64,000 nt of DNA from Candidatus Pacearchaeota archaeon (lineage in GTDB: Archaea; Nanobdellota; Nanobdellia; Pacearchaeales; GW2011-AR1), in NCBI GenBank assembly GCA_018303885.1, contig JAGVXG010000001.1, forward strand, positions 11,746 to 75,745, written 5' to 3'. Below the pieces are notes generated by a model, which was not told the origin of the DNA, did no database searches, and worked only from the letters and a program-made list of their open reading frames with translations. The translations under genes and the position numbers were made by a program. Below are positions 4,344 to 43,012 of this stretch, piece by piece (the first letter of the stretch is position 1; every line of letters starts with the position of its first letter).

Positions 4344-4727
4344 TTATTCCACTATGATGGTTCCATAGCCCATTCCCATAGAACAGGCAAATCTAAATGT
4401 TCCTTTTTTTGTGGGGGTAAAATCAATTGTCTCACTTGGGGTTTTCACATACTTTGAAACACCAAGGTCTTTTATTGTGAAACTTCTTAAGCAGCCTGTG
4501 ACAGATTTATCAAGAGTTATACTTACGGGTTTTCCAGATTGCACCTTTATTGTATTCGGATAATAGTTGTAGTCTTTTGTTCCTAATACAACTTTTTGGA
4601 CTTCTCCTTGAACAACATTTTTCGGAATATCTGTATTTTCTTGAGTTGTTCCCCCCTTCAGAAGAAGAAACCCTGCAATCGCTATTAAAATAAAAATGCT
4701 AATCATATAAAAAATATTTTTTGCCAT
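4344..4727 (-). CDS. Cupredoxin-like (Cupredoxin_1 family) secreted copper protein
   Basis: 127 aa; N-terminal signal anchor; ...KVQSGKPVSITL...TGCLRSFTIKDLGV...GTFRFACSMGMGYGTIIVE matches cupredoxin_1 pattern. Confidence 0.6.
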   Translation of the reverse strand: MAKNIFYMISIFILIAIAGFLLLKGGTTQENTDIPKNVVQGEVQKVVLGTKDYNYYPNTIKVQSGKPVSITLDKSVTGCLRSFTIKDLGVSKYVKTPSETIDFTPTKKGTFRFACSMGMGYGTIIVE

Positions 4728-4730
4728 TTT

Positions 4731-5414
4731 TTATTGGAACAACAAGCTCCTTGGTCCAAAAACCATAAACCATGTTGTTACTGCAGTGAGCATGAAACTC
4801 CATGAAATTGTGAAAAATTCATTATCTTTGTGTTTTCTTTCCATTTCTCTTGTTTCAGTATATATCATATAATTCAATCCAAAGAGAATAAATCCTGAAA
4901 TCATGAAAACAACCGCTCCCGCAACCCTTAGATTGTCATTGAGCATCATTATAGCTGTCATTCCACCCATTATTCCACCCATGAAGCCAGCCATCATTCC
5001 TTCCATTGCCCCCATTATTCCACAGCATTTTCCATTCCATACGCCAAATAAAATTCCAAAGGACATTCCGACAACACTTCCCCAAAACATTCCATTAGTA
5101 GAAGCAATAAAAAACCCAGGCAAAAATCCAGAGATCATTCCTATTGTCATTCCTATCATCATTCCAGACATGCATGAAAATTCCTTATAAGCTCTGATAT
5201 GCTTTACAGAAAGCAGAATAAGGGAGTAGCTTAGTACAGCAAAAAACAAGAAAAACCCGTATTTTGGAATAAAGTTCTCGATGTATCTAAGCCTGACAAA
5301 AAAAAGAATTCCTAATAGGATAAACGAGGTGACTAGTGAAACGAAAATGGTTTTAACTAACTCGCCTTCAACTTTGTCGTTATTCAGTGATTTTATGAAA
5401 TCTTTTACAGGCAT
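4731..5414 (-). CDS. Met/Gly-rich polytopic membrane protein
   Basis: 227 aa; repeated GMxxGM motifs (MSGMMIGMTIGMISG...CCGIMGAMEGMMAGFMGGIMGGMTAIMM). Confidence 0.5.
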   Translation of the reverse strand: MPVKDFIKSLNNDKVEGELVKTIFVSLVTSFILLGILFFVRLRYIENFIPKYGFFLFFAVLSYSLILLSVKHIRAYKEFSCMSGMMIGMTIGMISGFLPGFFIASTNGMFWGSVVGMSFGILFGVWNGKCCGIMGAMEGMMAGFMGGIMGGMTAIMMLNDNLRVAGAVVFMISGFILFGLNYMIYTETREMERKHKDNEFFTISWSFMLTAVTTWFMVFGPRSLLFQ

Positions 5415-23986: not shown

Positions 23987-24139
23987 CCCTCTGTAGCTTA
24001 GTGGTTAAAGCGCCTGGCTGTAGGTTTTACCTAAGGTGGAGATTCAATTATGATTACGATGAAGCCCCAAAAGCCAGCTCTTGAGTTTAAGAACGAAGCA
24101 GAACCCGGGAGATCCCCAGTTCGACTCTGGGCGGAGGGA
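23987..24139 (+). tRNA. tRNA-Tyr(GTA) with an 80-nt intron at canonical 37/38 position (intron 24024..24103)
   Basis: Acceptor CCCTCTG/CGGAGGG, D arm GCTT-AGTGGTTA-AAGC, anticodon stem CCTGG/CCGGG, loop CTGTAG|...|C, T arm CCCAG-TTCGACT-CTGGG, discriminator A, then T-tract. Confidence 0.6.
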
Positions 24140-36354: not shown

Positions 36355-37017
36355 ATGCCAAAGACAAAAAGAGGTTTGTTCATTGCCTTTGAAGGAATTG
36401 ACGGAAGCGGAACAAGCACGCATGTTCATAAGTTAGAGGAGAGGATAGAAGATTTAGACAAGTATCAAGATGTTATTAGGACTCATGAGCCATGGAAAAA
36501 TGAAGAAATAAAAAGAAAATTAGAAAATGATAAAGTTGCTTATTCTGATGGGTTGAAGATGGCAGGACTTTATATTGAAGATCGGACCCAACATACGAGA
36601 CAAATAATTAGGCCTGCTTTAGAAGAACAAGGCATAGTTATTTTATGTAAACGATATAAAATGTCAACGTGCGCTTATCAATGGGCACAAGGCGTTCCAT
36701 TGCATGATTTGTTATCAATGCATAATCATCGTGGCCTTCTTGTTCCAGATTTGACGTTTTATTTAGATATTCCTAGAAAAGTTGCGGAAAGAAGAATTGA
36801 AAGAAGAAAGAAAACCGAAAAATTTGAGAAAGATCCAAGGTTCACAGAAAAACTGATTAAGGCTTATAATGCTTTATTGGGCTTATCAGAAGCTGACCCA
36901 AGGATTTTCGGGAAAGTAGTAAGAATAGATGGAAACAGAAGAATTCAACAAGTTTCAGAAGATATTTTTTCAGAATTTTTGCCTTTGTATAACTCTTGGA
37001 TTTCTAGAAATAGGTGA
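36355..37017 (+). CDS. tmk: Thymidylate kinase
   Basis: 220 aa; P-loop FIAFEGIDGSGTSTH, DRY-like ...ILCKRYKMSTCAYQ, lid region. Confidence 0.8.
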   Translation: MPKTKRGLFIAFEGIDGSGTSTHVHKLEERIEDLDKYQDVIRTHEPWKNEEIKRKLENDKVAYSDGLKMAGLYIEDRTQHTRQIIRPALEEQGIVILCKRYKMSTCAYQWAQGVPLHDLLSMHNHRGLLVPDLTFYLDIPRKVAERRIERRKKTEKFEKDPRFTEKLIKAYNALLGLSEADPRIFGKVVRIDGNRRIQQVSEDIFSEFLPLYNSWISRNR

Positions 37018-37018
37018 A

Positions 37019-37062
37019 CGCCCACACCAGGAGTCGAACCTGGGTGCCTGTTAGAGGGTAAT
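37019..37062 (-). other. tRNA 3'-half-like fragment (class II variable arm + T arm + acceptor 3' strand), no 5' half found
   Basis: Minus strand reads CCTCTAACAGGCAC-CCAGG-TTCGACT-CCTGG-TGTGGGC-G, about 85% identical to 3' half of tRNA-Ser at 38539..38619; no complementary 5' acceptor strand within 150 nt. Confidence 0.4.
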
Positions 37063-37191
37063 AGAAAGATTTAAATTGTATATTTGTGTGTGTTTATCAT
37101 AGGGAAACAGGACCTGACGAACCCCACGCTTGACGTGGTTAGTAGGATAGACGGACCTCCTTACCCTATGCTTTTTTGAAGTTTTAAATTC

Positions 37192-37656
37192 TCATATGTT
37201 AAGTCTTTCAATGTTCAGCCAATTATCCAAAACAAGGCTTATTTGGTACTCGATAGTTCCGACTTTTAGCTCACTTTCCTTTACTACCTTTATGTTTTTT
37301 CCGTCAACAATCTTAACAAAGTTTTGAAAATTATTATATTGCTTGTTATCTATTGAAGCAAATATAAGGCAATTAGGATTATTTTTAATAAATTCCCCAA
37401 TATCAAGAAATATCTCTATATTCTGCCGGGTTTCTCTTATTTTATGTTTTAAAAAATAGTCTAATAAATTTTCTCTTTTGAAGGTTTTCTTAACATTCTT
37501 TAGGTAAAGCTTTTTATCTCCCGCTTCTCTATAGTGCCTAAATCGAAATATTTTTGGCAATAAATATTTTATTTTTAATTTTTCAATTATTATATACCCA
37601 ATCAAGTTATCTGAATAGTCTATAAAGATATAGTAGTCAAATTGTTTTGCTCCCAT
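37192..37656 (-). CDS. Hypothetical protein
   Basis: 154 aa; Asn/Lys/Ile rich. Confidence 0.4.
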   Translation of the reverse strand: MGAKQFDYYIFIDYSDNLIGYIIIEKLKIKYLLPKIFRFRHYREAGDKKLYLKNVKKTFKRENLLDYFLKHKIRETRQNIEIFLDIGEFIKNNPNCLIFASIDNKQYNNFQNFVKIVDGKNIKVVKESELKVGTIEYQISLVLDNWLNIERLNI

Positions 37657-37788
37657 TCACAACAATCCCCATACGGATTTATTAATTTTGTCTATTATGC
37701 TCAATACCAAGATTCTTCAAAATCATAATTTTATCGATGATAAAATACGCCCCAACCAAAACCCTATAAAAAGTGTTACAGTTGGGAT

Positions 37789-38451
37789 TTAGATTGCATT
37801 GTCTAATAATCTGTTTAGATAAAAGACACCAAAATTTCGTAAGAGTAGCGTTTTAGCCATGTTCATATGATAATCTGAACTAAAAGCATGCCCTAGTACC
37901 TCAGCAAGTCCTTTTTCCTCATCTATTCTAGCTATTTCACTTTCTTTTCCGTATCTTCTCAGTTTTTCGGGGCTTATTGCAACAATTTCAGGATCTGTTA
38001 TGTTTCTGTAGATTATTTCAATCCAACGACTCTGTCTAAAAGATTCGGGAGTATAAAATTGGCCTGACTCGTCATGTCTATTGCTTAAAACTACTGGCAC
38101 CCGATTAAATCTTATACTGTGGAAATCTCCATTCTCTCTCCAAAATAAAGATAAAAACCCGCTATTATCTGGTTCTGCACCAAGTTTCCAGTCCTCTTTG
38201 AATACTTCATATCCTCTAAGAGAAGGTATATCCGTGCCGTTTTGTTTCAAAATATCGAGATAGTATTCCATGTCTTGATTGTATTCTGACTTTATTACAT
38301 TTTTGGCGTCTTCAATTAAGGAGACATCTATTCTAATACTGATTGGTAAATCCATTACAGATAAATGTATGGGAACTGTTGCAGTCACAGCTTCGTCTCT
38401 TTGATAAATTGATTGAATAGGTAACTCTCCTCTAACTAATTTTTCTATCAT
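37789..38451 (-). CDS. Hypothetical protein
   Basis: 220 aa. Confidence 0.4.
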   Translation of the reverse strand: MIEKLVRGELPIQSIYQRDEAVTATVPIHLSVMDLPISIRIDVSLIEDAKNVIKSEYNQDMEYYLDILKQNGTDIPSLRGYEVFKEDWKLGAEPDNSGFLSLFWRENGDFHSIRFNRVPVVLSNRHDESGQFYTPESFRQSRWIEIIYRNITDPEIVAISPEKLRRYGKESEIARIDEEKGLAEVLGHAFSSDYHMNMAKTLLLRNFGVFYLNRLLDNAI

Positions 38452-38538
38452 AATAAAAAATGAAAATCAATCTTTAAAAGAATTATTACAATTGATAATA
38501 GTCTTTGAGAATTCTCTAACTGTATCACAAATAACATA

Positions 38539-38619
38539 CGCCCCAACCAGGACTCGAACCTGGATGCCTGTTAAGGCCGAGATTTCCAATCTCGCGCAGT
38601 ACCCTTGTGCCATTGGAGC
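38539..38619 (-). tRNA. tRNA-Ser(GGA), class II with long variable arm
   Basis: Minus strand: GCTCCAA-TG-GCA-CAAGGGTAC-TGC-G-CGAGA-TTGGAAA-TCTCG-GCCTTAACAGGCAT-CCAGG-TTCGAGT-CCTGG-TTGGGGC-G. Confidence 0.8.
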
Positions 38620-42880: not shown

Positions 42881-43012
42881 TGCGCTGTCCGAGAATCGAA
42901 CTCGGGTCACCTCGTCTTTGCGTTTACACCAAATTATTAAAGGAGATGGTGCGGAAGAACCTTTGGTTCTTCTGCGTGGCAACGAGATATTCTACCATTA
43001 AACCAACAGCGC
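42881..43012 (-). tRNA. Intron-containing tRNA, most likely tRNA-Gly(GCC); 61-nt intron at 37/38 (about 42916..42976)
   Basis: Minus strand: GCGCTGT acceptor / ACAGCGC-A, D loop AATGGTAGA, anticodon stem TCTCG/CGAGG with loop TTGCCA|intron, T arm CCGAG-TTCGATT-CTCGG; intron holds an 8-bp hairpin GAAGAACC/GGTTCTTC. Alternative register gives CCA (Trp). Confidence 0.55.

Follow-up and report, generated by a model that had tools for sequence, protein, structure and literature searches.

The tRNA genes of Nanoarchaeum equitans reportedly include split genes, as described by Randau et al. in 2005. The known split tRNA halves are cut at or near positions 37/38 or 29/30, carry a promoter of their own along with a GC-rich leader that is complementary to the trailer of the 5' half, and occur with no intact copy of the same isoacceptor elsewhere. 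Incomplete tRNA genes are also found where DNA has been inserted, and the integration of SSV- and pNOB8-type elements in Sulfolobus tRNA genes is of this kind. Archaeal insertions flanked by partial tRNA copies have been documented, with 44-bp repeats and subsequent inversions among the features recorded; the tRNA-gene integration of PYG1 in Pyrococcus yayanosii, with its 44-bp repeats, is one example (PMC9897764). In a 64,000-nt stretch of a Candidatus Pacearchaeota genome (assembly GCA_018303885.1, contig JAGVXG010000001.1, positions 11,746 to 75,745; hereafter the window), an isolated tRNA 3' half of 44 nt is located between the thymidylate kinase gene (tmk) and an intact tRNA-Ser(GGA) gene, with two open reading frames (ORFs) separating it from the latter. 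The original prediction, which was made from the sequence alone, offered either a decayed integrative element or a stand-alone split tRNA half as the explanation. The feature is a tRNA gene relic at an insertion site, a scar of an already known kind, and probably represents a non-functional duplicate of the tRNA-Ser 3' half, which was left when ~1.5 kb of DNA was inserted into the 3' part of tRNA-Ser(GGA).

The minus strand of 37019..37062 reads CCCUCUAACAGG-CAC-CCAGG-UUCGACU-CCUGG-UGUGGGC-G, where CCCUCUAACAGG forms a 3-bp variable-arm hairpin, CCAGG-UUCGACU-CCUGG a perfect 5-bp T arm and UGUGGGC the acceptor 3' strand, followed by the discriminator base G73, and the perfect tRNA 3' portion originally described is thus present in the sequence. 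A direct-repeat search paired 37018-37053 with 38538-38573 in the same orientation, 1520 nt apart, at 89% identity over 36 nt, and a count by hand gave six differences over 38 aligned nt (84%) between the fragment and the intact tRNA-Ser(GGA), in agreement with the earlier estimate of ~85%. The exact blocks common to the two are only 10, 9 and 7 nt long. The fragment retains a high GC content, and neither ARAGORN nor Rfam called it. Its last 25 nt are identical to those with which intact tRNA-Ser genes end in ~47 related metagenome-assembled genomes (MAGs). This was established by scanning the query CCAGGTTCGANTCCTGGTGTGGGCG against one genome per species, which yielded 69 loci; the match formed the 3' end of an intact, contiguous tRNA-Ser in ~47 Pacearchaeota, Woesearchaeota and Nanoarchaeota genomes, which between them cover all four isoacceptors (GGA, UGA, CGA and GCU) and have the 5' strand GCCCACA. 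The fragment therefore has the T arm and acceptor strand typical of tRNA-Ser in this lineage. The variable-arm sequence UAACAGGCA is common only to the relic and the tRNA-Ser(GGA) of the window, and is absent from the 47 other tRNA-Ser genes. The resemblance between the fragment and tRNA-Ser is real and far beyond chance. It ends in the 5' strand of the variable arm, and the 3' strand of the anticodon stem is absent. The six differences between relic and tRNA all avoid the T stem, for which we calculated a chance probability of ~0.14, and there is thus no sign of selection on the relic. The relic region is identical in 11/11 same-population contigs covering it (twelve were compared, of which L011 stops short), a comparison that is uninformative on strain variation.

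Along the strand of the tRNA, the order of features is tRNA-Ser(GGA), ORF220, a short second relic, ORF154, a small RNA (on the opposite strand) and the 44-nt relic (Table 1), with the insert bracketed by the intact tRNA on one side and its directly repeated 3' part on the other. The two minus-strand ORFs of 154 and 220 amino acids (aa) occur between fragment and tRNA as first described, and ARAGORN and Rfam both recovered the intact tRNA-Ser(GGA) where it had been placed. The short relic, which was overlooked in the original prediction, lies between ORF220 and ORF154, is the more decayed of the two and corresponds to the last 11 nt of tRNA-Ser(GGA) and its 3' flank. It comprises 33 nt with 79% identity to 38517-38549, including the exact 14-mer ATACGCCCCAACCA, and aligns as a decayed copy from the variable arm through the 3' end. 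Two related loci (loci of relatives are designated by L and a number), L094 and L173, are an empty and an occupied site, respectively. In L094, tRNA-Ser(GGA) is directly followed by its flank and the promoter of the next gene. In L173, the ORF154 of which is 90% identical to that of the window, the unit of small RNA, promoter and decayed tRNA 3' remnant occurs twice in tandem (remnants TCCTGGTCCGGGCG and TCCTAGTCCGGGAG, respectively), and the junction CTTTCTAT(T/C)A is identical to that in the window. After the second remnant (TCCTAGTCCGGGAG), at the end of the ORF154/small-RNA module, comes the flank that adjoins the intact tRNA-Ser(GGA) in L094; the local alignment of the L094 and L173 flanks scores 49, a value reached by 0/2000 shuffles. 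Furthermore, 1.15 Mb of related loci were screened for T-arm-plus-tail motifs outside called tRNAs, and two further clean cases could be distinguished, L102 (1853-1895) and L115 (7681-7721). In both, an orphan half consisting of variable arm, T arm and acceptor strand comes within 17 nt after an intact tRNA-Ser(GGA) that is itself downstream of tmk. These orphan 3' halves belong to a different version of tRNA-Ser, and suggest that this tRNA has repeatedly been a site of replacement or insertion in Pacearchaeota. Both cargo genes of the window occur in varied contexts, sometimes in two copies, and thus show accessory or mobile-like behaviour. Two other candidate similarities were discarded. A promoter-like 17-mer after the intact tRNA in L094, considered as a module following the tRNA, is the promoter of the next gene and is homologous to L173 1380-1400, and the similar element arms sought after the tRNA and after the short relic are not significant in the flank alone.

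Table 1. Features of the tRNA-Ser(GGA) insertion locus, with their positions in the window and the basis on which each was assigned
Feature	Position	Strand	Basis
Thymidylate kinase (tmk)	36355..37017	+	Pfam PF02223, E 3e-28
Relic 3' half of a tRNA-Ser gene, not a gene	37019..37062	-	Sequence reading and repeat search
B recognition element (BRE)/TATA promoter of the small RNA, AGAAAG-ATTTAAAT, directly abutting the relic	37063..37076	+	Motif comparison
Conserved 74-nt structured small RNA gene (predicted), convergent with ORF154	37098..37171	+	GC content, conservation, covariation
ORF154, 154 aa, conserved DPANN protein, RNase H-like fold (predicted)	37192..37656	-	Homologues, AlphaFold (AF2), Foldseek
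Second, more decayed relic, between ORF220 and ORF154	37726..37758	-	Repeat search
ORF220, 220 aa, lineage-restricted protein of no assigned function, not a recombinase	37789..38451	-	ORF call and homologue search
Intact tRNA-Ser(GGA), acceptor GCUCCAA/UUGGGGC	38539..38619	-	ARAGORN; Rfam 49.7 bits

Tandem tRNA-Ser genes are common in the relatives, for example CGA beside UGA at a distance of 100-200 nt, and the acceptor strand of the relic differs from that of the adjacent tRNA-Ser(GGA). Both observations would also fit a truncated pseudogene of a second, tandem tRNA-Ser, which would have lost its 5' part on insertion or duplication of the ORF154/small-RNA module without a tRNA being restored, as would the ORF154 modules elsewhere that carry partial copies of the sequence beyond the small-RNA promoter, such as the 5' end of a GT4 gene in L022. 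We regard this origin as unlikely given that UAACAGGCA links the relic to the adjacent GGA gene and to none of the 47 others, and that the second relic copies the end of the GGA gene itself along with its flank. Moreover, the L173 remnant occupies the position of the tRNA-Ser(GGA) 3' end of L094 relative to the shared flank, and is therefore the 3' end of this same GGA gene and not of a second one.

The arrangement of tRNA-Ser(GGA) and tmk provides the genomic background to the insertion. In the relatives, tRNA-Ser(GGA) is found downstream of tmk and co-oriented with it in 19/19 loci holding both genes, and opposed in none. The closest relative having both is represented by L094 (tmk 65% identical), the tRNA-Ser(GGA) of which shares its D arm, anticodon arm, T arm and 3' end UUGGGGCG with that of the window. 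The intact tRNA-Ser(GGA) of the window, which has the promoter AAAATTTTAAAAAG at -39..-26, is therefore the vertically inherited gene beside tmk. Unlike in the 19/19 relatives, it is inverted relative to tmk in the window (36355-38619). The tmk stop codon is 1 nt from G73 of the relic, and for this reason the last few tmk codons (WISRNR) may derive from the rearrangement junction. The tRNA-Ser(GGA) gene of L094 (1297-1416) incorporates a 39-nt intron at position 37/38 which is absent from the gene in the window, and this shows the gain or loss of an intron between close Pacearchaeota. Two other tRNA genes in the window contain introns that are long for archaeal tRNAs. These are tRNA-Tyr(GUA) (23987-24139, plus strand; 80-nt intron), found by the intron mode of ARAGORN only and missed by Rfam, and tRNA-Gly(GCC) (42881-43012, minus strand; 61-nt intron), which both Rfam and the ARAGORN intron mode find and default ARAGORN misses.

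We propose that ~1.5 kb of DNA would have recombined into the 3' part of tRNA-Ser(GGA) through a Campbell-type or site-specific insertion, in which the gene would be rebuilt at one end of the insert while a partial copy would remain at the opposite end. The locus probably records two or more insertion steps, of which one brought in ORF220, enclosed by the tRNA and the short relic (37726-37758), and another ORF154 and the small RNA, between the short relic and the 44-nt relic. The responsible recombinase would have acted in trans or have since been lost, and either the whole tRNA-to-relic block, or the tRNA prior to insertion, would have been inverted relative to tmk. Which of the two copies is derived from the host and which from the insert can be assigned only tentatively. 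Several observations weigh against such a history. No integrase or recombinase could be identified in the insert or within ~10 kb of it on the basis of Pfam, NCBIfam, PHROGs, PADLOC, the domains of neighbouring genes and the ORF220 and ORF154 folds. The 44-nt relic and tRNA copies are not identical, with a longest exact block of 10 nt, and the UGUGGGC strand of the relic, if paired with the present 5' strand GCUCCAA, would give two mismatches. The uninterrupted L094 orthologue is matched by the 3' part of the intact tRNA and not by that of the relic. A relic that simply represents the displaced 3' end of the host gene is therefore not tenable unless the crossover took place at the very 3' end, with the relic arriving in the insert, or conversion occurred afterwards. 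Furthermore, the flank of the relic is the inverted tmk, so that an empty site is not demonstrable for the locus of the window itself; homologues of ORF154 and ORF220 occur elsewhere without adjoining tRNA pieces; and the inversion relative to tmk requires an extra event. Genes X and Y of L094/L173, which were sought elsewhere in the window to rebuild the inversion, are absent from it.

The decayed integrative element suggested in the original prediction is thus retained in part. The insertion scar at the 3' end of tRNA-Ser is supported by the direct repeats, the second relic, the L094/L173 pair and the L102/L115 cases, but there is no integrase. Likewise, the suggested comparison with relatives provided an empty (L094) and an occupied (L173) site, but no empty site for the locus in the window, where the inverted tmk follows the relic. 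That the two genes themselves make up the element could not be shown, as homologues of both are found in many non-tRNA contexts, an outcome that the original prediction had itself named as speaking against it.

Thirty-five nt from the fragment lies a GC-rich island (37095..37171; GC 0.55 versus ~0.3 around it), which had been overlooked previously. A corresponding ~74-nt block follows the ORF154 homologue in every locus fetched (L018, L020, L022 with two copies, L173 and L175), and ORF154 and the block are strictly linked in 8/8 distinct loci examined. On the strand opposite ORF154, the promoter CGAAAG-(A/G)TTTA(A/T)AT is located 28-31 nt before the block, with the same motif and spacing in five copies, and resembles the tRNA promoters of this genome in both sequence and distance. 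In the window, a T6 run (37172-37177) follows the block. The conserved block, the archaeal promoter on the opposite strand and the T6 run together identify the island as a plus-strand small RNA gene. RNAalifold analysis of seven copies predicted twenty base pairs, six of them with compensatory changes. A covariance model, R1, was built from the copies and searched over 98 sources (0.70 Mb), and matched only beside ORF154 homologues. No match to an Rfam family was found. The small RNA does not belong to a tRNA, since in four other loci no tRNA piece adjoins it; L173 and the window share a tRNA-Ser remnant beyond it. By eye, the conserved internal loop GAA / AGUA resembles a loop E (sarcin-ricin) motif. 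No motif of a tRNA-like cloverleaf, an H/ACA or C/D RNA, a hammerhead, or a fragment of the signal recognition particle RNA or RNase P could be fitted by eye, and Rfam provided no match to these. A role as a guide against the tRNA T arm, based on the CAGGAC..CGAACC which the RNA contains, was likewise discarded, with these bases placed in a co-varying helix and the complementarity lost in the second copy of L022 (L022b).

The presence of this island upstream of the fragment, and of 61- and 80-nt tRNA introns in the window which default ARAGORN and, for one of the two, also Rfam had missed, would be in keeping with an intact but unconventional class II tRNA, either with a long or non-canonical intron or permuted, and with its 5' exon nearby. 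We consider such a gene extremely improbable. When every possible single intron within 400 nt upstream was removed, none of the resulting 71,253 constructs was called as a tRNA by ARAGORN, although the same procedure recovered the intron-containing tRNA-Gly as a positive control. The ARAGORN intron mode, applied over the window, found tRNA-Tyr and tRNA-Gly and nothing at the fragment, and the sequence downstream of the fragment is the coding end of tmk. The island, considered as a 5' exon, intron or leader of the fragment, is not part of its tRNA, because it is kept without a tRNA piece elsewhere (five other copies in four loci, namely L018, L020, L022 and L175) and because the BRE/TATA places it, as a separate RNA gene, on the other strand. 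The ordinary intron-containing class II tRNA to which, according to the original prediction, the observation might reduce is thus not found, with no complete cloverleaf after the removal of any single intron within 400 nt upstream.

The second proposal of the original prediction, a split tRNA-Ser with an independent 3' half that is trans-spliced to a separate 5' half as in N. equitans, is not supported and appears very improbable. The fragment does have a perfect T arm and a still high GC content, its acceptor strand UGUGGGC is exactly that typical of tRNA-Ser in the lineage and pairs with GCCCACA, and the long tRNA introns (61 and 80 nt) of the genome imply that splicing machinery is present. 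The search for a 5' half was confined to the 64-kb window. Within these 64 kb, no 5' strand of the form G-Y-Y-Y-R-Y-R accompanied by a D arm or anticodon arm was found, which extends to the entire window the earlier observation that there is no matching 5' acceptor strand or D arm near the fragment. When 3,489 candidate 5' strands were each joined to the fragment, only chimeric calls resulted, which involved the 5' halves of real tRNAs or AT-rich coding sequence. The absence of the 3' strand of the anticodon stem would place the split at ~44/45, with the fragment starting at the variable arm and not at 37/38, and we know of no precedent for a tRNA split at that position. The sole upstream TATA box is 8-15 nt from the start of the fragment, compared to -38..-26 for the real tRNA genes of the window, and the BRE orients it towards the small RNA on the opposite strand. 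The fragment thus has no promoter of its own. The 35 nt upstream are AT-rich promoter sequence, with no leader that could pair with the trailer of a partner, and G73 is so close to the tmk stop codon (1 nt) that no room is left for a trailer or terminator. In L173, the counterpart has degenerated into AT-rich sequence, and in the ~47 relatives the tRNA-Ser isoacceptors, all four of them represented, are contiguous genes. Furthermore, tRNA-Ser was detected in 208/208 complete Nanobdellota genomes, where only tRNA-Trp and tRNA-Val are sometimes undetected (bioRxiv 10.64898/2026.05.13.725050). The GGA gene is the only intact tRNA-Ser visible in the window, and the isoacceptor to which the fragment itself belonged is not readable from it, as it has no anticodon.

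The two proteins encoded in the insert had been described as orphans without recognisable homology, a description that does not hold for either. For ORF154, more than 488 homologues sharing 58-97% identity are present in Pacearchaeota, Woesearchaeota and 'Nanoarchaeota' MAGs. They form a narrow family of ~150-aa proteins with no fusions, and no Pfam or NCBIfam family could be assigned to ORF154. Its AF2 model has a predicted local distance difference test (pLDDT) score of 91, and the top Foldseek matches are archaeal RNase HII (E 3e-5, template modelling (TM) score ~0.5), followed by generic proteins with an RNase H fold. Residues D13, S15, H41, D103, E127, D144, N148 and R151 are invariant. 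Exact copies of the window proteins occur on Rifle-type aquifer metagenome contigs. Neither an ORF154 homologue nor the small-RNA motif was found in the viral contigs of IMG/VR, and a viral origin of the pair was rejected on this basis. For ORF220, thirty homologues with 44-71% identity could be distinguished, in close relatives only and in four different non-tRNA contexts, with no flanking repeats found around them. In one source the protein is named hypothetical protein J4422_00380, and no Pfam, PHROGs, PADLOC or NCBIfam match was obtained. ORF220 may represent a new fold, given a confident AF2 model (pLDDT 94.5, predicted TM score (pTM) 0.92) for which comparison against the PDB yielded no fold match (best E 0.08, TM < 0.2). 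A weak match to the C/D-box RNA sR52 within ORF220 (37899-37958, minus strand; 25.7 bits against a gathering score of 50), with E values of 0.014 in a 2.7-kb search and 0.34 over the whole window, is probably due to chance.

The ORF154/small-RNA module is found in two copies in both L022 (251-880 and 4001-4640) and L173 (1-140 and 707-1350). Behind each of these modules, the sequence beyond the small-RNA promoter is repeated in part or in full, as the 5' end of a GT4 glycosyltransferase gene in L022 and as tRNA-Ser remnants in L173, which suggests that the module was duplicated or mobilised together with adjacent sequence. It is conceivable, if rather unlikely, that ORF154 and the small RNA form a self-mobilising or RNA-dependent nuclease module, which would have made the relics by copying the adjacent target with each move, in place of a classical integrase. 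Neither a guide-like variable segment nor element ends were found in the module, and candidate terminal inverted repeats were rejected, with nothing conserved among them. In L175, the ORF154 homologue is situated in a tight row of genes, coding for proteins of 351 aa and 156 aa, followed by the RNA, and proteins of 80 aa, 202 aa (NYN domain) and ~400 aa. A called '113 aa' ORF in this locus (4461-4802; also in L176-L178) overlaps the small RNA (4508-4590) on the opposite strand, and is probably a false gene call.

For the purposes of annotation, the fragment should be labelled as a tRNA gene relic, rather than as a tRNA, a functional pseudo-tRNA or a split half. With three independent loci containing orphan 3' halves, tRNA-Ser(GGA) beside tmk represents a recurrent recombination site in Pacearchaeota, which helps to define the limits of accessory DNA in such very small genomes. 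The pair of ORF154 and the small RNA is widespread and unannotated in DPANN archaea. It is the most novel thing found at this locus and may matter more than the fragment, as a candidate new ribonucleoprotein or mobile module.

RNase H-like nucleases beside structured RNAs are known from mobile DNA, where the IS110 recombinase is accompanied by a bridge RNA, and TnpB or IscB by an omega RNA. Similarly, the ORF154 module combines a protein with a predicted RNase H-like (RuvC-like) fold with a strictly linked, adjacent and conserved structured RNA, and occurs in several copies and contexts. ORF154 differs from the proteins of these systems in its length of only 154 aa and its lack of a second domain, and its best structural matches are to RNase HII rather than RuvC, with IS621 and Cas12f matching weakly (E > 0.04). 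The RNA of the module, unlike those of IS110, TnpB and IscB, is 74 nt long, convergent with the gene and has its own promoter, and we do not claim membership of these systems. The fragment shares with the split tRNAs of N. equitans a DPANN host and an isolated 3' tRNA piece terminating at the discriminator base, but displays none of their split site, own promoter and complementary leader. The closest parallel is with PYG1-type insertions. As in these, foreign genes are enclosed by an intact tRNA on one side and a ~44-nt direct repeat of the tRNA 3' portion on the other, several events are stacked at one tRNA, and a later inversion separates or re-orients the parts. In contrast to PYG1-type cases, which span 9-23 kb and have (nearly) identical repeats, the insert in the window comprises 1.5 kb without an integrase, between repeats of 84-89% identity. 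Its cargo consists of an RNase H-like protein and a small RNA, together with a protein without known fold, and its host is a DPANN archaeon of the Pacearchaeota.

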